Part shown: positions 34,310 through 51,794 of the stretch, one piece after another
Numbering within the stretch: the first letter of the stretch is position 1
Layout of the letters: each line of letters starts with the position of its first letter
Virus record (IMG/VR): IMGVR_UViG_3300032320_002688
Coordinates: 1 to 64,000 of that record
Direction: 5' to 3' (one strand)
DNA length: 64,000 bases
Source: a virus
Lineage: Duplodnaviria > Heunggongvirae > Uroviricota > Caudoviricetes
Made by a program: the position numbers and the translations under genes
The notes under the pieces: generated by a model
What the model saw: only the letters and a program-made list of their open reading frames with translations
Database searches by the model: none
Told to the model about the DNA's origin: nothing

Positions 34310-35956
34310 TTACATTCCTAAATTCATACCACCACCATTGTCATTTTTTTCATCTTTTTTCTCGAACACAACTGATTCTGTTGTTAAAATTGTTCCTGCT
34401 ACGGACGCTGCATTTTCGAGAGCAATACGTGTCACTTTTACAGGATCAAGTAAACCTTCATTTAACGCGTCGGCAACAGTATCTGTTTTAACATTAAATG
34501 TTGTAAAGTTGTTGCCTTCTGGATCTTGCTCAAATACGATATGAAGAATTTCATACCAGTTATCTTTACCAGCATTATCCATAATTTTCTTAAATGGTGC
34601 ATAACAAGCTTGTTTTACAATCTTGATACCCGAAATGATATCGGCGTTAGTGTCACCTATTTTTCCAAAGATATTATTAAACGCTTTAATCAACGAAACA
34701 CCACCACCAGGAACAATACCTTCAGCTAATGCTGCTTTTGTTGCGAATAAAGCATCTTCAACTCTATCTTTCTTTTCTTTAATTTCAATTTCGCTATTTC
34801 CACCAACTGAAACGATAGCAACACCACCAATTAATTTACCTAAACGCTCTTGTAATTTTTCTTTTTCAAAGAACGATTGTGCTTTATCAATTTGTGATTT
34901 AATTTCTTCGGCACGTGTAGAAATTGCTTCTTCAGTACCACCACCATCAATTACAGTAGTTTTATCTTTATTAACATTAACTGTTCTTGCTTTACCAAGA
35001 TATTGAGTGTATTGAGCAACAGGAATTTTATCTAATTTTAATCCTTTTTCTTTACTAATAACTTGACCACCTGTTACAGTAGCTAAATCTTCAAGGGCCA
35101 TTGTTCTACGTTCGCCAAAATCAGGTGCTTTAACAGCAATAACTTTAACGATACCTCTTGCTTTGTTAACGATTAATGTAGCTAATGCTTCACCATCAAT
35201 ATCTTCCGCAACAATTAATAATGATTTATTTTCAGCGCTTACTTTTTGTAATACTGGAAGCAATTCAGCAGCTGTTGTAATTCTACCGTCAAAAATTAAT
35301 ACATAAGCATCATCAATGATAGCTGACATTGTATTATTATCGGTAACAAAATAAGGTGATTTGTAACCACGCTCAAACTGCATACCCTCAACTACTTCAA
35401 GAGATGTTTCGCCTGATTTACTTTCTTCAATTGCAACTACGCCTTCACGGCCTACTTTTTCAAGAGCAGTAGCAATTAAATTACCAATTTCTTCATCATT
35501 ATTACCTGAAATGGTTGCTACAGCTTTAATGTGTTTTTCATCACTGATATCGAGAGCAAGTTTTTTAAGTTCATCAACTACTAACTTTACTGCTTTATCA
35601 ATACCTTTCTTTACTTCTACTGGGTTAGAACCTTGACCTAACAATTTAAGTCCTTCTTCTACCATTGTAGTAGCAAGTAATGTTGATGTTGTTGTACCAT
35701 CACCAGCTTCATTTGCTGATTTAATACTTACTTGTTTTACAAGTTGAGCTCCTAAATCTTCTACTTGGTCCTCTAATTCAGAAAATGCTTTAGCAACTGT
35801 AACACCATCTTTTGTTACTTTAAGTTCACCACTTGCATCTTTAATTAAAACTGTTCTACCACCTGGACCTAAAGTGGAAGAAACACTGTTATTCAACTTT
35901 TGAATACCAGCGAGTAATTTATTTTTTAAATCAATTCCATACGATGTTTCTACCAT
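34310..35956 (-). CDS. groEL: chaperonin GroEL (Cpn60)
   Basis: 548 aa; ATP-binding GDGTTT; C-terminal GGGMNLGM; full-length colinear with Hsp60. Confidence 0.95.
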   Translation of the reverse strand: MVETSYGIDLKNKLLAGIQKLNNSVSSTLGPGGRTVLIKDASGELKVTKDGVTVAKAFSELEDQVEDLGAQLVKQVSIKSANEAGDGTTTSTLLATTMVEEGLKLLGQGSNPVEVKKGIDKAVKLVVDELKKLALDISDEKHIKAVATISGNNDEEIGNLIATALEKVGREGVVAIEESKSGETSLEVVEGMQFERGYKSPYFVTDNNTMSAIIDDAYVLIFDGRITTAAELLPVLQKVSAENKSLLIVAEDIDGEALATLIVNKARGIVKVIAVKAPDFGERRTMALEDLATVTGGQVISKEKGLKLDKIPVAQYTQYLGKARTVNVNKDKTTVIDGGGTEEAISTRAEEIKSQIDKAQSFFEKEKLQERLGKLIGGVAIVSVGGNSEIEIKEKKDRVEDALFATKAALAEGIVPGGGVSLIKAFNNIFGKIGDTNADIISGIKIVKQACYAPFKKIMDNAGKDNWYEILHIVFEQDPEGNNFTTFNVKTDTVADALNEGLLDPVKVTRIALENAASVAGTILTTESVVFEKKDEKNDNGGGMNLGM

Positions 35957-35960
35957 GTTA

Positions 35961-36248
35961 TTAGTTTTTAATAATTCCTAAAATATCATTCTCTTTACAA
36001 ATAAAATAATCTTGTCCTTCAACGCTAATTTTCATTGCGCCTAATTTTGGGATAAGTACTTTATCTCCTACTTTTAATTCTGTTTGTTTCCAAACGCCCA
36101 TATTCCAGTTAAAAGTATCGCTTACTGCAGCTACTTCACCGATTTCGGGTCTTTCTTTTCCCAAATCCGGGATAATAATGTTTCCTACCATCTGTTCTGT
36201 TTCTTCTACAGGGGTAAGGATAATGTGTCCATTTAAGGGTTGTATCAT
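35961..36248 (-). CDS. groES: co-chaperonin GroES (Cpn10)
   Basis: 95 aa, 4 nt upstream of groEL; ILGII C-terminal pattern and mobile-loop region. Confidence 0.85.
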   Translation of the reverse strand: MIQPLNGHIILTPVEETEQMVGNIIIPDLGKERPEIGEVAAVSDTFNWNMGVWKQTELKVGDKVLIPKLGAMKISVEGQDYFICKENDILGIIKN

Positions 36249-36294
36249 AATTTTTCGTTTTTTTAAATATAAGTAAAATAATTTAAATAACCAA

Positions 36295-36310
36295 AGAGGG
36301 CGCTAACTCT
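36295..36310 (-). promoter_or_regulatory. GC-rich motif AGAGGGCGCTAACTCT upstream of groES-groEL
   Basis: shares the core AGGGCGCTAAC with 36777..36792 (there on the opposite strand, as GGTTAGCGCCCTAAGG). Confidence 0.35.
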
Positions 36311-36313
36311 TGA

Positions 36314-36730
36314 TTACTTAATAGCCAACACTTTAGGTTTGGCTTGTTCCGCGAATGGAATAGAAATTAATAATAAACCATTATCCATTTGGGCATCACC
36401 ATTTTGAAGATCAAAACGCGATGAAATTTTATAACCTAGATTAAATGAACGACGAGCAATACCCTTATGGATATAGTTAGTTATGTCGATTTCATTTTCT
36501 CCATCTTTTTCATATGTAACTCGTAAGATATCTCCTTCGATGTTAATATTAACATCTTCTTTAGATAATCCAGTGCATGCAATTTCAAAATGCAAGCCTT
36601 CTTTTGTTTCGTAAATGTCTACGGGGTGTGAAATTTTGGTCTCCAGTGCTGGAGCGAAGAATGAGTCGTTGTTGAAGAAATTCTTGAACAAGACATCGAA
36701 TGGGTCTGTGTGTGTTTTCAATAGTGTCAT
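36314..36730 (-). CDS. small heat-shock protein (Hsp20/alpha-crystallin family)
   Basis: 138 aa; alpha-crystallin domain; C-terminal I-x-I-type ISIPF. Confidence 0.75.
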   Translation of the reverse strand: MTLLKTHTDPFDVLFKNFFNNDSFFAPALETKISHPVDIYETKEGLHFEIACTGLSKEDVNINIEGDILRVTYEKDGENEIDITNYIHKGIARRSFNLGYKISSRFDLQNGDAQMDNGLLLISIPFAEQAKPKVLAIK

Positions 36731-37890: not shown

Positions 37891-40497
37891 TTAGCTAATA
37901 ACAAAAAATTTGTTGGCATACTCGTTAAGAGATGGAAAAGACCATTTTAAATCATCATACACGCCCTGCAGTTTATTCAGGAACGTTGAGTCGAATGTTT
38001 TTTCTTTATCAACATACTTCTCGATGAACTCCATTATTTCTGGTGGGTCATCAACTCCATAGAATCCTATACAATCAAGTCGATATGGATTATCTTTTAA
38101 ATACACATAGTATATTTTTTCAAATTCCTTAATTGTTGGATATTTTTTATCTAATTTTTTAAATCGTAATAAATCGTTGTAGTAAATAGCTGCTTTAGTA
38201 TTAATCGGAGCTTTAGATTTTAAGTCACTAAATATCTTAGATGCTGTAGGTCCACGCTCAATATATTCTCTAATTTTCTTAACTCCAGTTGGTTTAGCAA
38301 TTTCAACTATTTCTCGACCAGCAATACTTTTCTTGAATGATGATATTAGTAAATCAATTTCTTTCTTTTGTTTACCGAACATGATTTGTTGAATTAAGTT
38401 CTCACCAAATTTTCTAAATAATGGAGGGAAATTTGATTTCATCAAATCTAATCCTTTGATATCTAATTCTTCGGTTGTGACACCCTCTTTATTAATAATG
38501 TATTGGGCATAACGTCTTTTACCTGCAAAATAACCTCTTTCAAGTATCACCTCTTGTTTTAATTCAAAATAATGATCATCCTGAATATTAAATAAATCAC
38601 GAACGTGTTTATTAAGATATTTGTTAATTTGTTTTTGGTAATCACTTGCTACTTCTAATATTTTAGCAATGCGAGCATCTCTATCATTAACATCTAAATC
38701 AGGCCATCTGTATCTTACAACATCACCTACTCTAATAAACATTGAATCGGTATCACTTGTAATTACATAATCAACATCTTCAGTTCCAATTTCAGTATTA
38801 ATCATTCGATTCATTTCTAAGATTGATTCTTTGATTAATCGTTGTCCTGTTAATGTAATGGCGTTTGAAATGACTTTATATCCGTCTGTATATCTCCATC
38901 CGTTTTGGGCAAAACACCCGTAAACGTCATTTAACTTAATTTTAAACGCATGTTGTCGTTTATTATAAAACTCACCTAATACAGGATCCTTCTTTACTTT
39001 ATAAGCATCCTTCATCATGTTTTTATATTCAACACGTTTATCAAACCAATCTGATAATACATCACAAACAACACTTCGTTTATCACTCCTAAACAACCCA
39101 CCACTAGCGGCAATTGTAAGTTTATTTTTTTCAATCATTTCGATTAACTTACTTGCTGTAATTTGAGTTACTTGACGTTTAGGATTTTCAATAGTTACTT
39201 TCTCACTTGGTCTAAGTGCTTTTAAATCCATTAACGTCCAATTACTATCATATTTATCTCTTATTTTAACATTACCAACTAATGTTTCTACTCCCATATT
39301 CAATGAACGAATAATAGATGGGTATAGTGAGGTAAAGTCAAGATCAATTACATCGCTATATAAGCCAGGAATAGGATCTTTTAAATAACCACCAGCATAT
39401 TCATCCCCAATTGTTAAACGCAATTCTGGGTTCATTGTTGTTGGTTTGTTATTAGAAACAATACCCTGACGTTTTAGGTAAGTCAAGATAGCTCCTTCAT
39501 TTAACATTGTCGACCAGTAGATATTCTCATACGGCACGTGACACAAATGACAAATGTTGAGTGTTAATTCTATAAATTGGAGTTTTTTATCTAACTCAAT
39601 TAGAATTTCAACGTCACGAATGTTATAATCGATGAATTTAGCTTTATCTTCCTTAAATAATTTATCTAAACTAACTTCATACTTAATTTTACCTAAATTA
39701 ACATATTTTTCTCCAATATCACCTAATTTATAAGATGGTTCTTGTTTAGTAATATATTTTTTAAATAAATTAAAGTAGTCTAAGTGATTAATACCGGCAA
39801 TGTCAACATAGTCTTTACTCATTTTTTGAGATTCAACTGTAGTAACAGCTCCGTATTGATTTAAATTACCTATAATTCCTAATGGGGATAATCGTTTTGC
39901 TGTGTTGTGATCAAACACTTTCAGCATTCTAAAATATAAATAAGGAATATCAAAAAATTCACTATTCCATCCTACAACAATTGTAGGTTCAAGTTCTTCC
40001 CATTTGTCTAAGAATTTTAACAACAATTCTTTTTCAGTATAGCACGCAATAATGCTTCTACCATTTTCTTCAAACGATTCCATAGATTTAGATTCGTCAA
40101 GAATATAACAAATTGTTTGTTGAGTGGATTTGTCATATAGAGCAATTGAAGTAATTTTAGTTGGAGAATTTTTAATATTCTCAGGAGTTAATGCACCACC
40201 AATTTCACACTCAATATCTAAAAATACTATATTATGCCATTTAGGTGGCTCGTCTTCATGTAAATAACTTTCTATTAATACACGAGTCTCATTAGGAATA
40301 TCTACTTCATAGTTTTCCTTAGAGTATTTGTAAGTAGGAGATACTTTTTTACCATCTAAAGTAACAAACTCACCATTTGGGTTTGGTTGGTAGTAAGTGG
40401 GTCTATAATCAAATGAAACCCAACCCTCGTTATCATCTTTAAGGTGGACAGTTTTAGCATAGTTCTCCCCTTGCTGGATGTAAATGGCTTGATACAT
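37891..40497 (-). CDS. family-B DNA polymerase with 3'-5' exonuclease
   Basis: Exo I FLDIECE; motif A DLDFTSLYPSII; motif C ITSDTDSMF; KxxxNSxYG-type motif B region. Confidence 0.9.
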   Translation of the reverse strand: MYQAIYIQQGENYAKTVHLKDDNEGWVSFDYRPTYYQPNPNGEFVTLDGKKVSPTYKYSKENYEVDIPNETRVLIESYLHEDEPPKWHNIVFLDIECEIGGALTPENIKNSPTKITSIALYDKSTQQTICYILDESKSMESFEENGRSIIACYTEKELLLKFLDKWEELEPTIVVGWNSEFFDIPYLYFRMLKVFDHNTAKRLSPLGIIGNLNQYGAVTTVESQKMSKDYVDIAGINHLDYFNLFKKYITKQEPSYKLGDIGEKYVNLGKIKYEVSLDKLFKEDKAKFIDYNIRDVEILIELDKKLQFIELTLNICHLCHVPYENIYWSTMLNEGAILTYLKRQGIVSNNKPTTMNPELRLTIGDEYAGGYLKDPIPGLYSDVIDLDFTSLYPSIIRSLNMGVETLVGNVKIRDKYDSNWTLMDLKALRPSEKVTIENPKRQVTQITASKLIEMIEKNKLTIAASGGLFRSDKRSVVCDVLSDWFDKRVEYKNMMKDAYKVKKDPVLGEFYNKRQHAFKIKLNDVYGCFAQNGWRYTDGYKVISNAITLTGQRLIKESILEMNRMINTEIGTEDVDYVITSDTDSMFIRVGDVVRYRWPDLDVNDRDARIAKILEVASDYQKQINKYLNKHVRDLFNIQDDHYFELKQEVILERGYFAGKRRYAQYIINKEGVTTEELDIKGLDLMKSNFPPLFRKFGENLIQQIMFGKQKKEIDLLISSFKKSIAGREIVEIAKPTGVKKIREYIERGPTASKIFSDLKSKAPINTKAAIYYNDLLRFKKLDKKYPTIKEFEKIYYVYLKDNPYRLDCIGFYGVDDPPEIMEFIEKYVDKEKTFDSTFLNKLQGVYDDLKWSFPSLNEYANKFFVIS

Positions 40498-41906: not shown

Positions 41907-42440
41907 TTATCCTTGTCTTTGTTTGTCATTCTGCCACTGCCCATCATATAATTCAGCAGGATCACATTCATGGAAATATATTTGCGCTACTCTAGCGTCT
42001 TCTTCAATAAAAATAGTTTCTGTTACTAACATAATTGTTCCCATGTTATCTGTTTCAAAACCAGGATCAAATACTGGAGAATTAATTAATGTACCATTTC
42101 TCCACATTGATGAACGTTGCTTAATGAATGCTACACGATTAGCAGGTATTCTACAACCTTCGTTAAAGGTAATATCATAAGTACCTTCATGTAACAACCA
42201 TCCTGTTCTACCATCCAAGTTTAATTTATCAACAGGAGTATAATCAGCTAGTTCTGTTTTTTCTTTTAATACTTTTCCAATTCTACCTGTTTTTTCTAAT
42301 GTTACAGGATCAATTTGAGGATTATATCCTACTTTATTTACTGCTTTAAGGGTAATATCAAAACCAACTTGTGCTGGTTTACCCTTAGCATTATCTAATT
42401 TAAGGAGTCCTTCTCCTAATATTTGTTGTACGTTTAACAT
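41907..42440 (-). CDS. dCTP deaminase/dUTPase-family protein
   Basis: 177 aa; beta-rich dUTPase-like pattern GFDITL...GRTGWLLHEG...IMLV. Confidence 0.5.
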   Translation of the reverse strand: MLNVQQILGEGLLKLDNAKGKPAQVGFDITLKAVNKVGYNPQIDPVTLEKTGRIGKVLKEKTELADYTPVDKLNLDGRTGWLLHEGTYDITFNEGCRIPANRVAFIKQRSSMWRNGTLINSPVFDPGFETDNMGTIMLVTETIFIEEDARVAQIYFHECDPAELYDGQWQNDKQRQG

Positions 42441-42591
42441 AATTTTATTTTATAATTCTTCTAAAATACCTAATATTTCGGCTAATATAAATAAAGCTCC
42501 TGATACAGCCGACTTTCCAAATATAAGAGCAAATCCTGCTCCAAATCTAAGAAAGGACTTAACTAAGCTAATATAAAAGTGCCAATTTGTT

Positions 42592-43005
42592 TTACTTTCT
42601 TTCTCTTGCATAATCTTGTATTGTTTTTGAATCTGCTCTTTCCCATGGATATACTATCCAATCTTTATCTACTACTTCGTAATGGAATGTTGGTTGTACA
42701 GATGCAGTTTCTTTTGTGTGGATTGTTGCTGTTGTGATGACATTATACTTCTGTAATGTTCCCCCAGAATCGCAGATATCATCTACTATTAATACTTTAT
42801 TATTTAAGACCATTCCAGGCCTAAACAATGGAATGTCTAATTTATGAGATAACATTACAGCAGGTATTAATCCTCCTCTAGGCATTCCAAATATATATTG
42901 AATATCTAACCCACTGGATATTACTTGAGATGCTATATTATCTACAGCAGTCTCAATATAATCCCAGGTAATAAATCTTTTGTTCATATTAGAATTTTGT
43001 TCCAT
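42592..43005 (-). CDS. gpt: xanthine-guanine phosphoribosyltransferase-like (type I PRTase)
   Basis: FITWDYIE, PRGGLIPAVMLSHKL, VLIVDDICDSGGTL, WIVYPWE align with E. coli Gpt IVTWDML / SRGGLVPGALLAREL / IDDLVDTGGT / WIEQPWD. Confidence 0.7.
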   Translation of the reverse strand: MEQNSNMNKRFITWDYIETAVDNIASQVISSGLDIQYIFGMPRGGLIPAVMLSHKLDIPLFRPGMVLNNKVLIVDDICDSGGTLQKYNVITTATIHTKETASVQPTFHYEVVDKDWIVYPWERADSKTIQDYARERK

Positions 43006-43621
43006 TTACTTCAATCGCGTGTAAGAATTCTTCTCTAATTAAATTATCTTTTTCCATAAACACACCACTAAATTTGTTTGTAGTCATTGTTGATGGGTGT
43101 TTAATACCTCTATGTGAGCAACATGTGTGCTTACAAGCAATACTAACGGCTACTGATGGGCAATCCATTTTAGTAGATAAGTAATCATGAATTTGTTGTG
43201 TTAATGATTCTTGCATTTGTGGACGGCGACTAAACCATTCTACAATACGATTTAATTTACTTAAACCAATAACGTTTTCACCGGGCACATAAGCTAATGT
43301 AGCAAATCCAGTAAATGCTAAGTTGTGGTGTGCACACATACTAACAATAGGAATACCTGATTGGATAACTAATCCATTATAACCATCATCATTAGGAAAT
43401 ACTGTAATGTTAGGTTCGTCTGTAATACTGCCTACAATTAAATCTTTTAACCATGCTTTAGCTACACGACGAGGTGTATCTTCAGTTTGTCTATCAGCTG
43501 TGTAGTCAAATCCTACAGCATTAAGGAAATCACCATATGCTTTAGCTGCTTTATCAATCATTTTTTCTACCTCTTTAGGTGTACGAGATAGACTACCATT
43601 TGATTTTTTTAATAATTCCAT
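42989..43621 (-). CDS. folE: GTP cyclohydrolase I
   Basis: MCAHHNLAFTG...VIGLSKLNRIVEWFSRRPQMQESLTQQI matches FolE CEHHLVPF...VIGLSKIARIV..AQRPQVQERLT. Confidence 0.9.
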   Translation of the reverse strand: MELLKKSNGSLSRTPKEVEKMIDKAAKAYGDFLNAVGFDYTADRQTEDTPRRVAKAWLKDLIVGSITDEPNITVFPNDDGYNGLVIQSGIPIVSMCAHHNLAFTGFATLAYVPGENVIGLSKLNRIVEWFSRRPQMQESLTQQIHDYLSTKMDCPSVAVSIACKHTCCSHRGIKHPSTMTTNKFSGVFMEKDNLIREEFLHAIEVNGTKF

Positions 43622-43622
43622 A

Positions 43623-43859
43623 TTATACTTTTTCTTGTTTTTCTTTCAATTTACTAACTTCTTTTTCAAGTTCCAAATGTTTTATAGCAATTGTTGAAGC
43701 CATAATTCCTATCTGTTCCCAGATTCTTTGAATTTCCTTGTTTTGATAAATTACTTCATCTTTAGTTTTATCGATTTTGCGTATCAAATATACTTGCATC
43801 AATGATACAAAAATAAAGATACCAAAATATACTTGCTCCAACGTAATAGTGAATTGCAT
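43623..43859 (-). CDS. small membrane protein
   Basis: 78 aa, N-terminal TM helix and coiled-coil tail. Confidence 0.4.
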   Translation of the reverse strand: MQFTITLEQVYFGIFIFVSLMQVYLIRKIDKTKDEVIYQNKEIQRIWEQIGIMASTIAIKHLELEKEVSKLKEKQEKV

Positions 43860-43878
43860 GTTATTTAAATATTATTTT

Positions 43879-43986
43879 AGCTGTCTCGTACAAAAAAGTT
43901 AATGCCCAATACATGATGAATGTAAACAAACCAACTCCGACTACTTTAATAGCTAATTCTAAAAATTTTATTAATTTATTTTCCAT
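43879..43986 (-). CDS. tiny TM ORF (about 35 aa, not in track)
   Basis: MENKLIKFLELAIKVVGVGLFTFIMYWALTFFVRDS read by eye; its start lies in a duplicated 29-bp leader. Confidence 0.2.
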
Positions 43987-43989
43987 ATT

Positions 43990-44176
43990 ATACGTTTAAT
44001 GTTTTATTAATTCTTCATATGATGGTTTACCTTGAGCAATTCTATCACTTTCTTTTATAATAATAGACATAACTTCTTTACGAATATTTTCTATATCACT
44101 TTCTTCTGAGTTAAACTTTGCAACTAGTTCACCTTCTAAATAGCTAGATTTAATTTTTATTTCTAAAGTTTCCATA
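43990..44176 (-). CDS. small acidic ORF (about 58 aa, not in track)
   Basis: METLEIKIKSSYLEGELVAKFNSEESDIEN...; its start lies in the second copy of the 29-bp leader. Confidence 0.25.
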
Positions 44177-45016
44177 CTATACGTTTAAGGTTTTATTCCA
44201 AGCTGCAATATGTAATCTTGTAAGACCACGGAAACGATACTTCTTAGCCATTTCAAGACAGAATCTAGTGCGCTCTTCAAAATTAGAAGCATCATCTAAA
44301 CCTGGCATACAAACAACGTTTTTAAGCGGTATATTAAATGGTTCTACGAAGTCACGGAATAATTCCAATACATCGTCTTCAGTGCTAATAACGAACTTAA
44401 ATTGATAGTTTTTATGTAGTTTAATACGCTCAATCGCTTCTGGATTAATACGTTGTTTTTCTGTCATACCTGAATTAGCTAATTTAGGTGAACAGTTAAT
44501 TTGATCTAACATATTAAATAACTTAACATCTATCACTATTGTACCATTAGTTTCAATTTCATAGAATGGTTTAACATTATTAACGTCAAGATATCTTGAC
44601 ATCCAGTAATTAGTAAAATTAACAATTGCTTCTTGATGACCTTTAATTGTTGGTTCACCACCTGTCCAAATAATATGAACTAAACCATTTTTAATATCTT
44701 CATATACACCCTCTTCTTTCCAACGATTAATTAAATAATCAAAATCTTTATCTTCACCTCTCCACAACCATTGACTAGTACTATCACAAGTCCAGGTTGC
44801 TTTACCTTCTAATTCTAAATCACCTTTGAATATTTCACCATCTTCTAATGATGCTTCTTTCATTAACTGGTTAGTAAATGCTCTACTCATACCGCAGGTT
44901 AGGTTACAAATACCTAAACGAACGAAGTACGATGGGATACCAGATGATATACCTTCGCCTTGAATGCTATAAAAATCACTACTAATAAGTAGTTTATTTG
45001 AATCTATTTTACTCAT
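44177..45016 (-). CDS. queE: 7-carboxy-7-deazaguanine synthase (radical SAM), atypical Cys spacing
   Basis: FSIQGEGISSGIPSYFVRLGICNLTC, HIIWTGGEPT, YEIETNGT align with E. coli QueE; the third cluster Cys appears displaced to WTCDSTSQW (compare CDTKHTW). Confidence 0.75.
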   Translation of the reverse strand: MSKIDSNKLLISSDFYSIQGEGISSGIPSYFVRLGICNLTCGMSRAFTNQLMKEASLEDGEIFKGDLELEGKATWTCDSTSQWLWRGEDKDFDYLINRWKEEGVYEDIKNGLVHIIWTGGEPTIKGHQEAIVNFTNYWMSRYLDVNNVKPFYEIETNGTIVIDVKLFNMLDQINCSPKLANSGMTEKQRINPEAIERIKLHKNYQFKFVISTEDDVLELFRDFVEPFNIPLKNVVCMPGLDDASNFEERTRFCLEMAKKYRFRGLTRLHIAAWNKTLNV

Positions 45017-45875
45017 TTACTTGTGTTGTTTTATGTTCTGATAATACTTTTTCTACGTGTGATTTAGCTACTTCCCAACTTACAGGACCTGTTTCGTCAG
45101 CATATGCTACTGGGTCAGGACGTCCTAATTTGATAAATGCTTCAATACGCTCTACTGATGCTGCTGATTTATAATCACTAAACCATTCTTCGTATTGAAA
45201 ACCTAGGTTATCGTAAATTAATAATTTAATTGGTTTATAAGATGTATTTGTACGCTTATATACCTCATTAAAATCAAGACCTAAGATATCACAAGATCTT
45301 TGCCCGTCCTCTAAGATGTCAAATTTATTAACTTCAAGATATGGAGTATAATGGTATACTAATTCTGAATCCCAGTTACCAATCTTAAAGGCTTCCATGT
45401 CTGCATCTCTAAATTCTTGACGGCAGTCAGGATAAATTGCATGATCACCAGCATGGATACCCATTGCAATAGCAACATCTCTTTTTTCCAATTGACCATC
45501 ACCTAAATCTTTAGTTGCAATTGATAATGCTACTGCTTGAATCAATGATGAAAAAATTTTATTACGATTAGGCACAACTGTTTCTTTCATATTGTCTTGC
45601 TCGTAATGTCCTTCTGGAACATCATTACCCCCAGTTACTAAAGCAGAGTTTAATAATTGAGATAAACCATCTAGTTTGATAATTTGATGTGTTACAGGTT
45701 GATTGTTTTCTTTTAGATATTGTACTAATGATGTAGCACGTTCTAATTCTACTTTGTGTTTTTGACCATAGTCAAAACCTAATGCTGTTACTTCGTAGCC
45801 ATTGGCTAACAGGTGTAACAATAATGAACTTGAATCCATCCCACCTGACAAACTTAAAACTGCTTGTTTTTTCAT
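45009..45875 (-). CDS. queC: 7-cyano-7-deazaguanine synthase-like, no canonical Zn-Cys cluster
   Basis: AVLSLSGGMDSS PP-loop, FDYGQKH, YPDCRQEF align with QueC; C-terminal CxxC...CxxC zinc site not found; protein 288 aa versus about 230. Confidence 0.75.
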   Translation of the reverse strand: MKKQAVLSLSGGMDSSSLLLHLLANGYEVTALGFDYGQKHKVELERATSLVQYLKENNQPVTHQIIKLDGLSQLLNSALVTGGNDVPEGHYEQDNMKETVVPNRNKIFSSLIQAVALSIATKDLGDGQLEKRDVAIAMGIHAGDHAIYPDCRQEFRDADMEAFKIGNWDSELVYHYTPYLEVNKFDILEDGQRSCDILGLDFNEVYKRTNTSYKPIKLLIYDNLGFQYEEWFSDYKSAASVERIEAFIKLGRPDPVAYADETGPVSWEVAKSHVEKVLSEHKTTQVNE

Positions 45876-46066
45876 TTTAATTTAAAATTAGTTAAGACTG
45901 TATTTACTTGTTTATCGCTTACGTCTTGTTCAAGCGAATTACGTTTATTATCACGCTTAATTTTATTTTGTTCTAATAACCATTGATCATATTGATAGTC
46001 ATAGTCTTCTTCCATACCACGACTCTCATTAATTATATCAATGAATATTTCCTTCATTTTGCCCAT
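45872..46066 (-). CDS. hypothetical protein
   Basis: 64-aa ORF inside the deazaguanine cluster. Confidence 0.35.
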   Translation of the reverse strand: MGKMKEIFIDIINESRGMEEDYDYQYDQWLLEQNKIKRDNKRNSLEQDVSDKQVNTVLTNFKLK

Positions 46067-46072
46067 AAAATA

Positions 46073-46867
46073 TTATTTAATGTAACTTTTAAATTTATTT
46101 ACATTAAAGGTAATATCTTCTATTCGCTCTTCCAAGTTCATTTCGAAATAATGTTCTAATTTATTTGCTGGTTTGAAATCAATCCCATTATCAGCATAAC
46201 GAACACCCTCGGCTCCAACTAATATTGGATTAGATGTATCTACTGATTTAATAAATTTCCAATCACTATAAGACATAAATTCTTGAGGCAATGAACAACC
46301 TAATAAATGATGGTACAATGTTTTTCTAATAGTACCAGACTCAACTAAGCGTCTGATGAACTCCATTCTACCATGCATTGATGCTTTTAATGGCAGTAAA
46401 TCAGCAACTATTGGATACATTTCTTGATAGGCAACACTAGAATGATTAAATGCAATATGTGTATAACCTAAATCAACTAATGTTTGATATGTTGTAACTA
46501 ACTCACCTATATCTTGTCCTTGGCATACTGCCATTAAATTAACACCCTCAGGTAAATGTTGTTTATAATTAATCATCCAACTTTTAGCATTTCTAATTGT
46601 TGCTGACGAATCATTCCATTCATCTGGGACAATAAAAACATCAGGACGAATTAAATGGATTTTTTCAATTAAATCTTCTGTTGTATGAGTTACTCCTTCA
46701 AATAAACCATTATCCATAATAATAAAGCGTTTATCTGAACGAGATTGCTCGAAAAATGTTCTGTATTGAATATACTTATCAATTAAATGAGGAAGACAAT
46801 AATCATAGTCATTCCATTGATATGCGTTTTGCATTAAGCTAAGAGGTAACTCATGACTTACTTTCAT
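46073..46867 (-). CDS. dpdA: tRNA-guanine transglycosylase-fold protein, DpdA-like
   Basis: IIMDNGLFEGV resembles the TGT nucleophile motif (L/M)TDSGG(F/Y)Q; size and position within the queCDE-folE cluster. Confidence 0.45.
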   Translation of the reverse strand: MKVSHELPLSLMQNAYQWNDYDYCLPHLIDKYIQYRTFFEQSRSDKRFIIMDNGLFEGVTHTTEDLIEKIHLIRPDVFIVPDEWNDSSATIRNAKSWMINYKQHLPEGVNLMAVCQGQDIGELVTTYQTLVDLGYTHIAFNHSSVAYQEMYPIVADLLPLKASMHGRMEFIRRLVESGTIRKTLYHHLLGCSLPQEFMSYSDWKFIKSVDTSNPILVGAEGVRYADNGIDFKPANKLEHYFEMNLEERIEDITFNVNKFKSYIK

Positions 46868-47084
46868 ACTTATGTAATTTTTTAGTTAATTTATCTATTT
46901 GAAGTTGACAAAACCATTTACCCATATTACCAGAGGCATTGTTATATTTTTCCTTCCATTCATTTATTTTTTTATGAATAGGAGCATTAGCTTTATTAAG
47001 TATATCAATGTCGTAATAGCTATTATTTTCTAACATTGGATCATTATTATCCTTCATATATAGCGCTGTTTCTTTCATTCTCAA
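46851..47084 (-). CDS. hypothetical protein
   Basis: 77-aa ORF. Confidence 0.35.
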   Translation of the reverse strand: MRMKETALYMKDNNDPMLENNSYYDIDILNKANAPIHKKINEWKEKYNNASGNMGKWFCQLQIDKLTKKLHKYESKS

Positions 47085-47514
47085 AAAATTCTACTTGTAC
47101 TATTTTAACTCTACCATTTGTTTCTTCTTGTACAAATGTATTTAGTTTTTCATAAATGAATTTAGCAAATTGTTCTGCACCAACAGGACCTTCTAATAAT
47201 CTAAGTTGAACAATACCTTTCTTATCCATTTCCTTAAATAATTCTACTTCAGGATCATCTGGTGCTATAACAGTAGTATGATCGAACATGTAGTCCATCC
47301 ATTGTTTAGCATTCATACCGTCAATGGTAGTTTTTGCTCGTTTCATTCCTCCAAAGTCCCAAACCCAATTTCTGTGGTCTAATTCTCCTTCAAATGTTAC
47401 TTTAAATTCAATGTCATATCCGTGTAGGAACTTACAATGTGTTCCCTCAGCAGCCCATTGACGAAAAACAGTACTAAAACCATTAAATAATTTTGTTGAT
47501 TGAAATTTACTCAT
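47047..47514 (-). CDS. queD: 6-carboxy-5,6,7,8-tetrahydropterin synthase-like
   Basis: EGTHCKFLHGYD corresponds to the QueD CxxxHGH region (here HGY); DFGGMK and FDHTT blocks. Confidence 0.65.
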   Translation of the reverse strand: MSKFQSTKLFNGFSTVFRQWAAEGTHCKFLHGYDIEFKVTFEGELDHRNWVWDFGGMKRAKTTIDGMNAKQWMDYMFDHTTVIAPDDPEVELFKEMDKKGIVQLRLLEGPVGAEQFAKFIYEKLNTFVQEETNGRVKIVQVEFFENERNSAIYEG

Positions 47515-48031
47515 ATGTTATTTTTTTAGGTCTACCTCTTTTTTTACCAAAATTATTAAAATCAGGTACGGGGTGACGTTTTACTTGATATTTTTCTTGT
47601 AATTGAATATACAACTCCTCTAGTGTACCATCAAAATCAGATGCTATTTCTTCTACTGTTTCTTTAGGTAATCTAAGTGTTCGTTTACATTCTTTATAAA
47701 ATCCTTCTAAACGTTCAGGTTCGTCTTTTTCAAAATCCTTCATCAAACGTCTATGACGTTCTCTAAATAATGTTTGTGCTTCATGTCGTGAAGAAGGATG
47801 GGTGATATGTCCTGTTTTTTCTTCCATTTCTAACAAGGCGTATTGTGCTTGCCAGTAATAATGAGAAAAATCAAAATCACCATTACGAATTTTATCTACA
47901 GCATAAGCATACTTAGATAATTCTTTTTGTTTAGATCTAAATTTTCTCCACCAAAAAAATTGATTGTAATTAAGACGTTGTAACTTATTTACTTCACGTA
48001 AAATTGTTTCTTTGCTGTGTGTAATTGACAT
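47507..48031 (-). CDS. hypothetical protein with C-terminal AT-hook
   Basis: 174 aa; C-terminus GKKRGRPKK (RGRP AT-hook core). Confidence 0.45.
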   Translation of the reverse strand: MSITHSKETILREVNKLQRLNYNQFFWWRKFRSKQKELSKYAYAVDKIRNGDFDFSHYYWQAQYALLEMEEKTGHITHPSSRHEAQTLFRERHRRLMKDFEKDEPERLEGFYKECKRTLRLPKETVEEIASDFDGTLEELYIQLQEKYQVKRHPVPDFNNFGKKRGRPKKITYE

Positions 48032-48034
48032 AAC

Positions 48035-48226
48035 CTATTTATTTGGCGTAAATTTAAGTATCTTTTCTGAGATAACCACCCTTCCCTTAGTATGTTTTGG
48101 TTCGTAAGGACAATGTCGACATCCATTACCGCAACATTGGCCGCGTCTAATGTGAGCGAGCGCTGTGAATATCACGCGCTCGCCTTCTATATAGTAATCA
48201 ACTTTATTTGTGAGTTCTTTACTCAT
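48035..48226 (-). CDS. Cys-rich mini-protein
   Basis: 63 aa; QCCGNGCRHCPY. Confidence 0.4.
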   Translation of the reverse strand: MSKELTNKVDYYIEGERVIFTALAHIRRGQCCGNGCRHCPYEPKHTKGRVVISEKILKFTPNK

Positions 48227-48227: not shown

Positions 48228-50078
48228 TTACACTATTTCACAAGCGCCTCCAGCACACGCTACTTGATCCATTAACGCTGTATCATCAGTATATTCAACG
48301 ATTTTACTTAAATCAATATTGTGGAGATGCTGAGCCATTTCTTCAAATTGTTCTTCAGTAATGTCTTCAAAGGGAGCTTGTTTATATGTACCTCCAAAAT
48401 AAGGTAATACTGATAAACCATTAAATGTTTCTTTATTTTCCCACATCCACTTACCTACTTTTTCCCATTCATGTTCTTGAATTGATACTGTAGCAGATAC
48501 GTTGTTTGTGTTAGCACCTTTTCTATGTCCTTTTTTAACCCATTGTGTATTAAATTTCTTAACACGTTCAAGCATATCCATTACATCTTCAGTTCTTAAA
48601 ATAGAACCTACTGGTGCTTTTTGTGGTACAGAAATTACAGCTTGAATTGTTGGTTTGAAGAAATCATCTTCAACTAATTCAGGGTGATTACTAGCTAAGT
48701 GAGAATATATAGCTTCGTTTTTACCTACACGAATACGTCTAATATAAAAATCATTGTGCCAAGCATGAATACCACTTGATGTACCTAATACTAATGATGA
48801 AGTACCTGATGGTTTAACTGTTGTTACACGAGCAGCTTTATTTACACCTATAATTTCAGCAACACGAGCGTTTTCTGTTTTAGCTAAATCAGCTGCTTTT
48901 TTCAAGTCATAAGCTAATATAGTTCCAGAACCAATACCTGTCATACCAACGCCTAATAAAGCGTCTTTTTCGGTTGTTTTACGCCATACATCTCTTAAGT
49001 AATGGAAATCAGTGTATGCTGCTTGTAATGTACCAATAAAGGCACCTACACGTACTCTTTCGTTTAAGTCTTCTTGTGATTCAACATTTGAAACGTTTAC
49101 TTCACATAAGTTACAGAACTGATAAGAACGTAAAGCAATTTCACAACATGGGTTTGTACCCCAATCTTTATCATTTGAAAAGTAAATTCCAGGTTCGCCT
49201 GAATTGCTTAATTCAATTTTCTTCCATAATTTAAAGAATTCTTCTTCATCAATTTTATGACGAATAACAACTGCAGAGTTATTTGCTCTACCACGTTGTG
49301 GATTCTCTTCCCACCAATTACCAAATTTACATGTTAACATTTCTTCATCATCTAAGTTGAATAATGAAATTAATGCTGCACGTCTAATACCACCACTTAA
49401 TACGGCATCAGCAATATGACAAGCCATATCATGAGCATCTAATGGGGTTAATCTATCACCATTTTTCTTTCTGTCAAGTACTTTTTGTAAGTTAAATAAA
49501 CATTCTTTTAATGGTTCAGGACCAGGTGCTTTACCACCTACAGTGATTAATTGAGCACCTTTTGGTCTAATATCTCTAAAATCAAATAGAGGTAATGGAG
49601 CTCCTGTAAAATATGCTTTACAAAGCATTCTAACAGCATCAGCCCATCCTTCAATAGAATCACCAATTAGATATCTTTTTGATTTAATAGGTATTTTAAT
49701 TTCTGGCAATTGCTCAATATGATGTCTTTGAACACTATATCCAACTCCACATCCACTCAACAACAAAAACATTATTTCGCTGAATGAACGCCAATCATCA
49801 ATAGGTAAAAAAGAACAATTAAATATACGAGCATTATTAAGTTCAATGGGTTTGCCCGCGAACTGTAAGCTACGCATTGATGGTAATACTTTTTTATCGT
49901 AGACCAATTTATAAGCTTCTTCGATTTCATCTTTTAATTTAGGAAATTTTGTTTGATGCATTTCCTTATTTCTTGTTACTAATTCTTCCCATGTTTCTCT
50001 TCTGTTCAGTGTGGGAACAAACTTTGCATACTTCATGTATGTAGTTATGTCACTGAGGATACCTTGCGTTACGTCCAT
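48228..50078 (-). CDS. ribonucleotide reductase catalytic subunit (probably class II, B12-dependent)
   Basis: 616 aa; RNR active-site Cys region NCSFLP; C-terminal redox tail CAGGACEIV; no ATP cone and no small subunit seen in the window. Confidence 0.8.
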   Translation of the reverse strand: MDVTQGILSDITTYMKYAKFVPTLNRRETWEELVTRNKEMHQTKFPKLKDEIEEAYKLVYDKKVLPSMRSLQFAGKPIELNNARIFNCSFLPIDDWRSFSEIMFLLLSGCGVGYSVQRHHIEQLPEIKIPIKSKRYLIGDSIEGWADAVRMLCKAYFTGAPLPLFDFRDIRPKGAQLITVGGKAPGPEPLKECLFNLQKVLDRKKNGDRLTPLDAHDMACHIADAVLSGGIRRAALISLFNLDDEEMLTCKFGNWWEENPQRGRANNSAVVIRHKIDEEEFFKLWKKIELSNSGEPGIYFSNDKDWGTNPCCEIALRSYQFCNLCEVNVSNVESQEDLNERVRVGAFIGTLQAAYTDFHYLRDVWRKTTEKDALLGVGMTGIGSGTILAYDLKKAADLAKTENARVAEIIGVNKAARVTTVKPSGTSSLVLGTSSGIHAWHNDFYIRRIRVGKNEAIYSHLASNHPELVEDDFFKPTIQAVISVPQKAPVGSILRTEDVMDMLERVKKFNTQWVKKGHRKGANTNNVSATVSIQEHEWEKVGKWMWENKETFNGLSVLPYFGGTYKQAPFEDITEEQFEEMAQHLHNIDLSKIVEYTDDTALMDQVACAGGACEIV

Positions 50079-50117: not shown

Positions 50118-50378
50118 TTATAATAATTCTTTAATCGCCTGAATATAGGCTGATTTAGGTTTTGCTCCTATAATTTTATTTACTACTTCTCCGTCTTTTT
50201 CAAGTATAATAGCAGGAATACTTGTTATAGAATAAGCTTGAGCTATAGCCTTATTTGTATCTACATCGATATCTATATAATTAACTCCGGATATTTCTCC
50301 TTTTATTTGTTCGAAAACAGGAGATAATGCCTTACACGGACCGCACCATGCAGCCGAGAATTTAAGAACCTTTACCAT
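50118..50378 (-). CDS. thioredoxin
   Basis: 86 aa; WCGPC active site. Confidence 0.85.
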   Translation of the reverse strand: MVKVLKFSAAWCGPCKALSPVFEQIKGEISGVNYIDIDVDTNKAIAQAYSITSIPAIILEKDGEVVNKIIGAKPKSAYIQAIKELL

Positions 50379-50414: not shown

Positions 50415-51794
50415 CTATGATTCCATTTTAAGCTTTAAAAAATTACTTAGATGTTTTTTTTCATCTGTACTTACTCCTCCATTGAAAGGAGTATTTGTAG
50501 GTCTTGAAGAAGGATTATCCATTCCGTCTTCATCCATTGCTTCTTCATCCATTTCAATATGACCAGTGGATGTATCTATTTTAGCAAAATATGTTGAACC
50601 ATCCATTCCATAACGATTTTTCATTATATGAAAACGACCTGTTCCATTTACTTTATCTTGACGTTTTCTTGATAATGACATTGCGAAGTCAGTAATCATA
50701 ATTTTATCATATGAACCTGCTGCTTTATCACCTTCAATAACATCATCTTTGGCACCTGCTCTATTAACTTGAGATACTGACCAAACAGGAACATTTAATT
50801 CACGAGCTAAGCCTTTTGTAGCTAAATATATATCATCAATTTCTTCTTTCTTTTCTTTACTACTACGTTTAGAACGAAGTAAATCCACATAGTCAATAAT
50901 AACTAAATCTGGTTTATTATCTAAATCTGTTAGTTTTTGAATGTGTGATTGAATTGTTGTTATAGTTGCTTTTCCGGGTGGATATTCTTTGATTGTAAGG
51001 GTACCTGGTAATTCAGCTACTGCTTTTTCTACGTCCGCTCTAAAGCTACTAATTACATTAACTGCTTTATTGGCGAAATAAGCATCATATCGTTTACCGA
51101 CATAACCTTCACTTAATTCTAAAGTGTAATGAACTACATTATATCCTAATCTTACAGCCCAAGCACCTAAGGCAACTAAAGTCCATGACTTACCACCTCC
51201 AGGATTACCAAATATTAATCCAAAATCTCCATTACCTAAACCACCACATAACAAATCATTAACTAAATCCCAAGGAGTGGGAACTACTTCACGTACTTCA
51301 TCTCTATATCGGGTTTCAATATCTTTGTTATATTCGTGACCTATATTTTTGTCTTGACCTGCTTTTAAAGCATTATCAACAATAGTTCTAATATCGTCAT
51401 ACATTCCCGACTGTAGGAGATCCACAGACTGGAGCAACGCTGATTTAAGTTGTTGGTTCTTGCAAAAATTACTAAATTCTTCTTCCACATATTCATTATC
51501 ATCATTAGCAACTTTAAATGTTTCTTTTAACTGCTCAACAACAGCAGTTTTTAAGACATCATTTTCAATTTTTTTTACTTCTACTTGTAGTGTTTCTAAA
51601 GTAGGCGTTGCATGATACTTATCAAAATAAGATAAGGTTGTTTTAATTATCCATTGATGTGCTTGACTATCAAAGTAGTCAGGAGTAATGGTATCACGTA
51701 TTGTAAGGATAAATTTTTTATTCTTTAATAGTGAATTTAAAATTTTGACTTGAAATCCAAGTCCGTACTGAGATAACTTATTAAATGCAACCAT
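50415..51794 (-). CDS. replicative DNA helicase (DnaB/gp41-like)
   Basis: Walker A GNPGGGKSW; RecA-fold C-terminal domain; 459 aa. Confidence 0.75.
   Translation of the reverse strand: MVAFNKLSQYGLGFQVKILNSLLKNKKFILTIRDTITPDYFDSQAHQWIIKTTLSYFDKYHATPTLETLQVEVKKIENDVLKTAVVEQLKETFKVANDDNEYVEEEFSNFCKNQQLKSALLQSVDLLQSGMYDDIRTIVDNALKAGQDKNIGHEYNKDIETRYRDEVREVVPTPWDLVNDLLCGGLGNGDFGLIFGNPGGGKSWTLVALGAWAVRLGYNVVHYTLELSEGYVGKRYDAYFANKAVNVISSFRADVEKAVAELPGTLTIKEYPPGKATITTIQSHIQKLTDLDNKPDLVIIDYVDLLRSKRSSKEKKEEIDDIYLATKGLARELNVPVWSVSQVNRAGAKDDVIEGDKAAGSYDKIMITDFAMSLSRKRQDKVNGTGRFHIMKNRYGMDGSTYFAKIDTSTGHIEMDEEAMDEDGMDNPSSRPTNTPFNGGVSTDEKKHLSNFLKLKMES

Follow-up and report, generated by a model that had tools for sequence, protein, structure and literature searches.

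The window analysed here, a 64-kb stretch of DNA, carries a compact group of 7-deazaguanine genes on its minus strand. As stated in the original prediction, genes for FolE, a QueE-like, a QueC-like and a QueD-like enzyme and a TGT-fold protein were all found between positions 42592 and 47514. The flanking replication genes were likewise confirmed, with PolB (37891-40497) on one side and a class II RNR (48228-50078), a thioredoxin (50118-50378) and a DnaB-like helicase (50415-51794) on the other; a 5'-3' exonuclease, a RecA/UvsX-like protein and gp32 are further replication genes of the flank. Family assignments with strong E-values (Pfam, NCBIfam and PHROG profile matches) crowd into 5 kb, and the genes are tightly spaced or overlapping, with gaps of -38 to +6 nt and a single exception of 136 nt. 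The gene order is kept in relatives: RNR, orf174, QueD, DpdA3, QueC, QueE, FolE, (PRT), DCD, PolB. Two parts of the locus, a 6-oxopurine phosphoribosyltransferase (PRTase) and the AT-hook protein orf174, had been overlooked earlier; these helper genes are an addition to an otherwise known gene set.

The pathway would start with GTP cyclohydrolase I, FolE (42989..43621, minus strand; 210 aa), which was identified by Pfam PF01227 (GTP_cyclohydroI, E 1.5e-47) and phrog_2197 (E 1.8e-58), has a CAHH motif at residue 96 and is expected to convert GTP to dihydroneopterin triphosphate. CPH4 would then be made by a QueD-like T-fold enzyme of 155 aa (47047..47514, minus strand; Pfam PTPS, E 2.6e-15; phrog_2389, E 3.5e-41), the presumed CPH4 synthase. 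This protein has the motif CxxxHGY where the canonical form is CxxxHGH, and in an alignment with E. coli QueD, Cys27 and His31 are retained, His33 is replaced by Tyr and His16 is gone. The same variant motif is common to the QueD proteins of Flavobacterium phage immuto and Cellulophaga phage phiST. An assignment as DpdL was rejected, as the signature LxxxHRHxF is not matched (PMC10516641).

For the third step, the formation of 7-carboxy-7-deazaguanine (CDG), the presumed synthase is a QueE-like radical-SAM enzyme of 279 aa (44177..45016, minus strand), which is matched over its full length by phrog_2076 ("QueE-like radical SAM", E 1.7e-37). No Pfam match was obtained, the NCBIfam QueE models score 28-47 bits, well under their cut-offs, and matches to QueE structures in the PDB are weak. 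Its cysteines are spaced C37-x3-C41-x35-C77 (CX3CX35C), which corresponds to an insert of 28 residues relative to the QueE proteins of immuto and phiST; both of these are CX3CX7C and thus also non-canonical. The insert was seen in the phage's own lineage only.

The fourth enzyme, QueC-like and ATP-dependent (45009..45875, minus strand; 288 aa; Pfam QueC, E 3.6e-36), is the presumed preQ0 synthase and would convert CDG to preQ0 by amidation and dehydration. According to the motif definitions of PMC13329287, all catalytic motifs of canonical QueC are retained (SGGMDS, YGQKHKVE, VPNRN and YPDC) except for the Zn cysteines, the Zn motif C(x)8CxxCxxC not being found in the protein. Furthermore, there is a C-terminal extension of 50 residues. 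The QueC of immuto is 60% identical and has the same Zn-less, extended architecture. Since the QueC-like enzyme has lost its Zn site and the QueD-like enzyme keeps just one of three canonical Zn histidines, the products of both enzymes are deduced from their context.

The TGT-fold protein is encoded at 46073..46867 (minus strand) and comprises 264 aa. No sequence match was found for it in Pfam, NCBIfam or the PDB, but it is matched by phrog_19058 (1.8e-31), and tblastn aligns it with the immuto DpdA ("DNA guanine transglycosylase") at 33% identity and with gp056 of Campylobacter phage CP220 at 34-35%. A family HMM derived from 110 diverse homologues picks up the DpdA3 prototypes of immuto (5e-108), CP220 (2e-84) and, at greater distance, phiST (CGPG_00065, 2e-28). 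On these sequence relationships the protein is placed in the published DpdA3 subfamily of guanine/7-deazaguanine transglycosylases. The AlphaFold (AF2) model (pLDDT 97, pTM 0.93) is a bare TIM barrel, and the top 50 PDB matches listed by Foldseek comprise nothing but tRNA-guanine transglycosylases and the bacterial DpdA structure 7ui4, with a TM of about 0.64.

The MDNGLFE motif noted originally was located at residues 51-57 (46697-46717). Three Asp residues are candidates for catalysis, namely D52 (46712-46714), D82 (46622-46624) and D210 (46238-46240), all on the minus strand. Missing catalytic Asp residues had been named beforehand as evidence against a DpdA-like function; all three are present and are invariant across the 110 diverse homologues, so this objection falls away. 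In the HMM alignment D210 lines up with the SIDS Asp of 7ui4, which is taken to be the nucleophile Asp256 once the 22-residue construct tag is subtracted (PMC10164549). D52 and D82 are candidate equivalents of D102 and D156 of TGT, based on motif context and their position at strand ends.

As FolE, QueD, QueE and QueC also form the bacterial precursor pathway for queuosine in tRNA, and as the TGT fold belongs mainly to tRNA enzymes, the cluster might supply preQ0 or queuosine precursors to host or phage tRNAs and leave the DNA untouched. This is considered very improbable: the protein groups with the DpdA3 prototypes of fully modified phages (PMC10516641), its barrel is devoid of the Zn subdomain and the C-terminal parts of tRNA TGTs, and its gene sits in a DNA replication module next to an AT-hook partner.

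With a probability of roughly 80%, the cluster is regarded as a DpdA3-type 7-deazaguanine DNA-modification module carried by an uncultured T4-like phage. The earlier reading, insertion of a preQ0-type 7-deazaguanine by a DpdA-like enzyme, is supported by the finding of a bona fide DpdA3-family member with invariant catalytic Asp residues. In the fifth step DpdA3 would put the free base into phage DNA in place of guanine, using the double-displacement mechanism of TGTs; D210 is the putative nucleophile, D52 would be the general acid/base, and D82 would read the Watson-Crick edge. By analogy to every DpdA3 phage analysed, replacement would be complete or nearly so: all those characterised reach 100% (PMC10516641). 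The replacement of guanine in phage DNA by 7-deazaguanine is a known anti-restriction strategy, and if replacement is near complete, broad resistance to restriction enzymes is expected.

Concerning the base itself, all ORFs of the window were searched for tailoring enzymes, the window covering about one-third of a genome that is probably 150-180 kb long. They yielded neither QueF, DpdL or DpdN, nor a domain of the amidotransferase, ArcS or formyltransferase type, nor the DpdM motif; a reductase, a decarboxylase and a methyltransferase are likewise missing from the module. In 80 related IMG/VR loci, QueF, DpdN, DpdL and Tmk were all lacking from the 10 kb around DpdA3. Given these negative results, the final base is most likely dPreQ0 and less likely dADG. 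The original prediction had suggested that atypical cluster members might point to a different base. This is weakly supported: although the long QueE insert is lineage-specific, the QueD and QueC peculiarities recur in known phages, the QueD variant in immuto as well as phiST, the Zn-less QueC, of these two, in immuto alone. In both phages 100% of G is replaced by a 7-deazaguanine (PMC10516641), and as atypical QueD, QueC and QueE traits recur in fully modified phages, no new base is indicated by the traits alone.

A smaller share of the probability, though not a negligible one, goes to a pathway that runs as proposed and ends in another base, either because the Zn-less QueC goes no further than the amide (dADG) or because an unrecognised enzyme modifies preQ0 further; orf174, a DUF5522 protein, one of the small ORFs or a gene beyond the window may serve as such. 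The missing Zn motif and the extension of QueC would fit a changed product, dADG is the endpoint in the Campylobacter DpdA3 phages, the authors of the study doubted that DpdA3 inserts preQ0 (PMC10516641), and five to six conserved ORFs in or beside the cluster have no assigned function. However, immuto has the same QueC form and must make preQ0 for its QueF, since its DNA contains 100% fdPreQ1, a base requiring preQ0 (PMC10516641). The QueC* of the Campylobacter phages, proposed to stop at ADG, keeps its Zn cysteines, so Zn loss is not a signature of ADG. The substrate-pocket motifs of the QueC-like enzyme are moreover all intact, and known tailoring domains are absent both from the window and near DpdA3 in the 80 loci.

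The gene next to FolE (42592..43005, minus strand), the lowest 414 bases of the cluster range, encodes a 6-oxopurine-type PRTase of 137 aa (Pfam Pribosyltran, E 8.2e-11) and overlaps the FolE stop by 17 nt. Its PRPP loop is VLIVDDICDSGGT (residues 71-83), the best NCBIfam match is xanthine PRT, and the closest PDB relatives are Sulfolobus GpT-2, the P. horikoshii purine PRT and E. coli XGPRT. The FolE-adjacent PRTase of immuto is 48% identical. Each of the three phage lineages in which DpdA3 replacement reaches 100% has a homologue, and in Brevundimonas and Synechococcus phages, too, the gene lies embedded among deazaguanine genes. Among 34 related loci the gene was found in 16, adjoining FolE in each, and is absent from 18, including the closest relative, L008 (91% DpdA3 identity). 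As about half of the relatives do without it, its role is dispensable. Most likely, the PRTase recycles the guanine freed by the exchange: guanine and PRPP would give GMP and then GTP, re-entering at FolE, and if so, the conversion of DNA-G to DNA-preQ0 would be a closed loop.

The PRTase could instead act before replication and couple CDG or preQ0 to PRPP, after which kinases, the class II RNR and PolB would form and incorporate the modified dNTP, and DpdA3 would mop up residual G or act on nucleotides. ToyH and TubE, from toyocamycin and tubercidin biosynthesis, are presumably precedents for a PRTase that joins a 7-deazaguanine base to PRPP. At least five phage lineages have a member of the family within a deazaguanine cluster, frequently next to RNR or dNMP kinase genes (RNR, dNMP kinase, FolE and XPRT in the Brevundimonas phage; RNR in phiST), and thymidylate-kinase-like and MazG or HD genes lie beside DpdA3 in immuto and CP220. 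Such a route would also fit the complete replacement in the characterised phages, the ADG nucleoside reported from CP220-infected cells and the failure of the family-defining authors to reconstitute DpdA3 activity in E. coli (PMC10516641), as well as the minimal build of DpdA3, which, unlike bacterial DpdA, has neither a Zn subdomain nor a large DNA-binding insertion, and a modified-dGTP route was proposed earlier for Campylobacter phages (PMC6884629). Nevertheless, it is judged unlikely, as an essential step should not be dispensable and the PRTase is lacking in over half of the 34 loci while DpdA3 and QueC are constant. Searches of the window gave no dNMP or GMP kinase and no dGTPase of the MazG or HD type, and the conserved AT-hook partner favours action on DNA.

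This partner, orf174 (47507..48031, minus strand), lies just beyond the upper boundary of the range noted originally and encodes a protein that is all-helical and carries an AT-hook at its C-terminal end (RGRPKK, residues 165-170). The protein has no Pfam or PHROG match, none of its 454 homologues is annotated, and its AF2 model (pLDDT 72.5, with a disordered tail) matched no fold in the PDB. Of 73 related loci, 26 have the gene; in every case it shares the strand of DpdA3 and lies no more than 1.75 kb upstream of it, even where DpdA3 identity is just 39-43%. From this position, orf174 is proposed to be a positionally fixed accessory partner of DpdA3.

Among the known systems, immuto shares the DpdA3, QueC, QueD and PRTase features described above and, in addition, GroEL and GroES. 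It differs by its QueF, the formyltransferase DpdN, and MazG and thymidylate kinase genes by DpdA3, none of which occurs in the window or the related loci, and by a family A polymerase instead of PolB; no orf174 homologue was seen in its cluster regions examined (L001, L006). CP220 (Firehammervirus; dADG, 100% of G), also T4-like and a myovirus, encodes PolB, a homologue of the PRTase and a QueD-like protein, but its deazaguanine genes are scattered across the genome and its DpdA3 is located between an HD/P-loop protein and thymidylate kinase. phiST (dDG, 100% of G) also has FolE and a PRTase homologue in its replication module; unlike the phage described here, it lacks QueC and has MazG and the QueD paralogue DpdL (LxxxHRHxF). 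The bacterial Dpd system (DpdA/DpdB/DpdC; 7ui4 is the DpdA of Salmonella Montevideo) has the TGT-like TIM barrel and three conserved active-site Asp residues, and it replaces G in DNA by preQ0, as is proposed here for DpdA3. Bacterial DpdA, however, is a larger protein (413 aa), contains a structural Zn site and the large DNA-binding insertion Ins8, requires the ATPase DpdB and modifies <0.1% of G, whereas the DpdA3 described here has no Zn site, no DpdB-like ATPase was seen, and the unrelated orf174 adjoins it.

Four small ORFs without credible family match complete the cluster, all on the minus strand. orf59 (43996..44175) was not detected in the 80 related viral loci by tblastn. In one relative (L003), an ORF of 59-62 aa lies in the cluster between orf78 and QueE. 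orf78 (43623..43859) is conserved in a subset of the related loci and orf64 (45872..46066) in the closest relatives only. orf77 (46851..47084), which bridges QueD and DpdA3, was found at the equivalent position in 42 of the 80 loci, mainly in closer relatives.

The gene cluster is located at 42592-47514 on the minus strand, which carries nearly all genes of the window, in AT-rich DNA of approximately 31% GC. In the order of transcription it consists of a QueD-like gene (47047-47514; Pfam PTPS, 2.6e-15; PHROG, 3.5e-41), orf77 (46851-47084), the TGT-fold ORF (46073-46867; phrog_19058, a family of unknown function, 1.8e-31), orf64 (45872-46066), a QueC-like gene (45009-45875; Pfam, 3.6e-36), a QueE-like gene (44177-45016; phrog_2076, 1.7e-37), orf59 (43996-44175), orf78 (43623-43859), the FolE gene (42989-43621; Pfam, 1.5e-47) and a phosphoribosyltransferase gene (PRTase, 42592-43005; Pfam Pribosyltran). 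All genes abut or overlap except for a single gap of 136 nt, and FolE, QueD, QueE and QueC are encoded together with the TGT-fold ORF within 5 kb. The cluster is surrounded by genes for PolB, a dCTP-deaminase-like protein, a class II RNR, thioredoxin, DnaB, a 5'-3' exonuclease, a RecA/UvsX-like protein and gp32. The Pfam and PHROG matches and this neighbourhood bear out the original prediction of a FolE, QueD-like, QueE-like, QueC-like and TGT-fold gene set for DNA hypermodification amid replication genes; the PRTase gene lies within the same boundaries and had not been named. Two further genes on the minus strand, a dCTP-deaminase/dUTPase-fold gene (41907-42440) and a hydrophobic ORF of 53 aa (42450-42611), come after FolE, and after the PRTase if present, in nearly all relatives of the lineage.

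The TGT-fold ORF had no match in Pfam, NCBIfam or the PDB sequences, and its identification came only from PHROGs, tblastn and fold comparison. By tblastn, it is 33-35% identical to DpdA3 prototypes (E 6e-34 and 4e-27), with 34-35% identity to the homologue of the Campylobacter phages of the CP220 group. The prototypes of the DpdA3 subfamily are immuto_65, CP220 gp056 and phiST CGPG_00065, as given in the main text of Cui et al. (2023; PMC10516641). An HMM built from 110 diverse homologues with identities of 30-52% recovers the immuto DpdA (5e-108), CP220 gp056 (2e-84) and the divergent CGPG_00065 of phiST (2e-28), whereas among the PDB sequences the family profile reached the bacterial DpdA structure 7ui4 only at an E-value of 0.09. 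The cluster therefore falls within the already known DpdA3 kind. In total, 1842 family members were matched in a 90%-clustered database, and an exhaustive search (E<=1e-3) resulted in 1632 clusters at 50% identity; about 600 IMG/VR stretches carry the family, which comes almost wholly from uncultured phages. Pfam DUF6610, to which the DpdA4 of archaeal viruses belongs, was matched weakly by 31 of the 110 members (best E 1.3e-4), which suggests that DpdA3 and DpdA4 are closer to one another than to other TGT-like enzymes.

An AlphaFold (AF2) model calculated from the 110-member alignment (pLDDT 97.1, pTM 0.93) predicts an eight-stranded alpha/beta barrel, consistent with a TGT-like (beta/alpha)8 fold. 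The best 50 of the 63 PDB fold matches (E<=0.001) were all TGT enzymes or the DpdA 7ui4, with a probability of 1.00. Its 264 residues amount to a bare barrel, and the family alignment shows no conserved Cys/His pattern for the structural Zn site of TGT and bacterial DpdA. The original prediction had left it to structure modelling whether the catalytic Asp residues are retained in the TGT-fold ORF. Their loss, which would have refuted the prediction, was not observed: nine positions are invariant in the 110 sequences, including D52 (MDNGLFE), D82 (PDEW) and D210 (VDTSNP). In the DpdA of S. Montevideo, Asp256 is the nucleophile, Asp95 the general acid/base and Asp130 serves base recognition (PMC10164549). 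The profile alignment of HLLG...SxDTSNP in DpdA3 to HLLG...SIDSTTP in 7ui4 places D210 on the Asp of the SIDS motif, which is taken to be Asp256 after subtraction of the 22-residue tag of the construct. D52 and D82 were assigned as probable counterparts of Asp95 and Asp130 based on their motifs and on their position at the strand ends of the model.

Among the biosynthetic enzymes, the QueC-like protein contains SGGMDS at residue 10, YGQKHKVE at 36, VPNRN at 101 and YPDC at 148, matching the catalytic signature SGGxDS, YxQxHxxE, VPxRN and YPDC that was defined for canonical QueC, the preQ0 synthase (PF06508 cluster 1; PMC13329287). The Zn motif C(x)8CxxCxxC is absent from the protein, whose sole two cysteines are located at positions 151 and 195, and for this reason it is named QueC-like and not canonical QueC. 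The region aligned to the Zn motif reads TSY...SDYKSAASVER and is alike in the immuto QueC; the score against NCBIfam TIGR00364 is 125, below the cut-off of 150, and the protein carries a C-terminal extension of around 50 residues. The QueC of the Flavobacterium phage immuto has precisely this Zn-less, extended form, with 60% identity. According to the main text of Cui et al., the DNA of immuto contains 100% formyl-preQ1 (PMC10516641). Since this phage also encodes QueF, it requires preQ0. For the QueC* of the Campylobacter phages, a stop at ADG was proposed. The QueC-like protein as such an ADG-synthase form was ruled out, because QueC* still has its Zn cysteines, whereas the form lacking them is shared with immuto, which requires preQ0.

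The QueD-like protein exceeds the Pfam PTPS cut-off (56.9 versus 22.4 bits), whereas the CxxxHGH motif and the three Zn-binding His of QueD are not found intact: C27-KFL-H31-G-Y33 takes the place of CxxxHGH, and the equivalent of His16 is Phe. Immuto and phiST have the same variant in their QueD. An assignment as DpdL, the proposed CDG decarboxylase, was discarded, as LxxxHRHxF is missing, the catalytic Cys is retained and the protein is not similar to the DpdL of the Cellulophaga phage phiST. The QueE-like protein has three cysteines spaced C37-x3-C41-x35-C77 as compared to the known CX3CX2C or CX14CX2C, scores 28-47 bits against the NCBIfam QueE models (cut-offs 200-300) and has no match to Pfam Radical_SAM; convincing recognition came only from the phage family phrog_2076. 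In immuto and phiST, QueE has the spacing CX3CX7C, and the additional insert of 28 residues appears to be specific to the lineage studied here. In the QueC and QueD comparisons, the QueC of E. coli and B. subtilis and the QueD of E. coli served as references, cross-checked in part against PDB alignments and published motifs.

The QueD and QueC variants and a non-canonical Cys spacing of QueE are traits of the enzyme set of DpdA3 phages, which, according to the main text of Cui et al., accompanies complete replacement of G in cultured phages (PMC10516641). The original prediction had called several members of the cluster atypical, and the strict canonical definitions of QueC and QueD indeed do not fit. 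Its further suggestion, that the final base may differ from those characterised, finds little support: the variants alone predict no new base, since they and a non-canonical QueE spacing recur in cultured DpdA3 phages with full replacement.

The original prediction had proposed a search of the rest of the genome for homologues of QueF, Gat-QueC and ArcS. Within the 64-kb window, predicted ORFs of about 60 aa and more were compared with Pfam in concatenated blocks; no QueF, GATase (amidotransferase), ArcS or formyltransferase domain was revealed, and the CxxxCxxCC motif of DpdM is found in no real gene of the window. On the minus strand, orf174 and the class II RNR gene flank the gene for a DUF5522 protein (48035-48226; 63 aa, CCGNGCRHCPY), which keeps this position in most related loci. 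This Cys-rich protein was rejected as DpdM on account of its mirror-image motif CCxxxCxxC and its length of only 63 aa. The QueF and DpdN of immuto and the DpdL of phiST were used as tblastn queries and gave no match in the window or in 80 IMG/VR loci with a DpdA3 relative of 39-95% identity (+/-10 kb each); thymidylate kinase likewise had no tblastn match within +/-10 kb of DpdA3 in the 80 loci. QueC was detected beside DpdA3 in 70 of the 80 loci, and most closer relatives also gave matches to QueD, QueE and FolE, in a presence/absence matrix (E<=1e-4) that may miss very divergent homologues. In mapped loci, QueC lies directly downstream of DpdA3. From the 64-kb window and the 80 loci, dPreQ0 is the simplest prediction for the final DNA base, and dADG the chief alternative.

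The PRTase consists of 137 aa with the PRPP-binding loop VLIVDDICDSGGT at residue 71 and scores 41.9 bits against Pfam Pribosyltran (cut-off 26.3). Its PDB relatives are Sulfolobus GpT-2 (3.9e-12), 1vdm of P. horikoshii (4.4e-10) and the E. coli XGPRT (1.8e-5), and it is classified as a putative type I 6-oxopurine phosphoribosyltransferase (XGPRT/HGPRT-like). Homologues among the GenBank phages largely belong to deazaguanine phages. The immuto homologue (48% identity) adjoins FolE, and others are found in the phiST and CP220 groups; the gene order is RNR, dNMP kinase, FolE and XPRT in Brevundimonas phages, and QueE, XGPRT, a hypothetical gene, QueD and FolE in the Synechococcus phage BUCT-ZZ01. 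Matches in Pseudomonas phages of the PA5oct type are partial. A match in a Rhodococcus phage lies in an NAD-salvage context and was set aside as unrelated. Five or more unrelated phage lineages carry a minimal 6-oxopurine PRTase inside their deazaguanine clusters, mostly touching FolE; in addition to the gene of the window (42592-43005, minus strand), such genes are located at 9840-10235 in the immuto cluster region (L001) and at 4983-5468, 4986-5447 and 5001-5414 in the fetched viral loci L090, L091 and L093, respectively. Among the 34 related metagenomic loci in which FolE lies away from the contig end, 16 contain the PRTase, as the neighbour of FolE in all 16 and within 90 nt in 15. It is absent from the other 18, including the closest relative.

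Guanine salvage is favoured as the role of the PRTase, because each base exchange by DpdA3 would release one guanine, each preQ0 made would consume one GTP, and a host enzyme may act as a substitute. A PRTase coupled to FolE could close this stoichiometric loop by leading excised guanine via GMP and GTP back to preQ0; where a host enzyme is able to replace it, the PRTase would be dispensable. In a live rival explanation, the PRTase ribosylates the 7-deazaguanine itself and thereby opens a nucleotide-level, pre-replicative route, and base ribosylation of this kind has precedents in deazapurine antibiotic pathways. A pre-replicative route was once proposed for the Campylobacter phages (PMC6884629).

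The gene orf174 (47507-48031, minus strand) is located directly upstream of the QueD-like gene, with an overlap of 8 nt, and encodes a protein of 174 aa for which no match could be found in Pfam, PHROG or the PDB folds. A total of 454 homologues, all unannotated, were identified. In 26 of 73 related loci, orf174 is present on the strand of DpdA3 and at most 1.75 kb upstream of it; it keeps a fixed place immediately ahead of DpdA3 or of the QueD-DpdA3 pair (e.g., in the fetched loci L053, L062, L078, L082 and L087), and it often abuts DpdA3 directly where the DpdA3 identity is only 39-55%. The family shares the motifs FWWR, NGDFDYS and FDGTLEEL, and most members, orf174 itself included, end in a C-terminal AT-hook, (R)RGRP(K/R)K. 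AlphaFold predicts an all-helical protein with a disordered tail (pLDDT 72.5). It is reasonable to regard orf174 as a candidate DNA-tethering partner of DpdA3.

As a tentative reading, with a probability of roughly 0.3, the PRTase and orf174 may account for the replacement of every G by DpdA3 phages, unlike DpdA1/2 phages. The orf174 protein could act as a subunit that tethers the small DpdA3 barrel to DNA and, as a functional analogue of DpdB, renders it processive and independent of sequence. Neither protein is discussed in the DpdA3 literature covered here; the main text of Cui et al. makes no mention of a phosphoribosyltransferase and describes attempts to reconstitute DpdA3 activity as having failed so far (PMC10516641). 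The two are candidates for the factors missing from the reconstitution and offer a testable handle on whether DpdA3 modifies DNA before or after replication. DpdA3 and four biosynthetic genes form a compact, operon-like set with no tailoring enzymes found in the window, and therefore a convenient construct for such a reconstitution. Given the size of the DpdA3 family and the near absence of cultured members, environmental T4-like phages may commonly have all G replaced by 7-deazaguanine, which bears on restriction and CRISPR evasion and on sequencing and cloning biases in viromics.

In a comparison of the known DpdA3 systems, the system of the window is nearest to that of immuto. In contrast to immuto, QueF, DpdN, MazG and Tmk are missing from the 64-kb window, QueE has the long insert instead of CX3CX7C, and orf174 is present as a putative partner, for which the retrieved cluster regions of immuto, CP220/CPt10 and phiST yielded no significant homologue. 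The genes are compact and operon-like, whereas those of CP220 are scattered. The phage also differs from immuto in belonging to an uncultured, T4-like lineage: by PolB, the nearest isolate is the Microcystis phage Mel-JY01 with only 36%, and megablast with the cluster as query gave no match to GenBank phages. Genes for GroEL, GroES and an Hsp20 small heat-shock protein are located together at 34310-36730 on the minus strand, and GroEL and GroES are encoded by immuto as well.

Furthermore, genes related to glycans and sulfation form a large island on the minus strand at about 5900-27100, of an extent unusual for a phage. The island encodes two sulfotransferases, an APS kinase, a cytidylyltransferase, a PfkB kinase, NAD-dependent epimerases/dehydratases and an RmlC-like epimerase, as well as methyltransferases and GT2, GT10-like and GT4 glycosyltransferases. 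A NodU/CmcH-type carbamoyltransferase (31985-33616; phrog_1601, 2e-101) adjoins a 2OG-Fe(II) oxygenase (33610-34284), and two further 2OG-Fe(II) oxygenases are encoded at 30106-30681 and 3319-3915, all on the minus strand.
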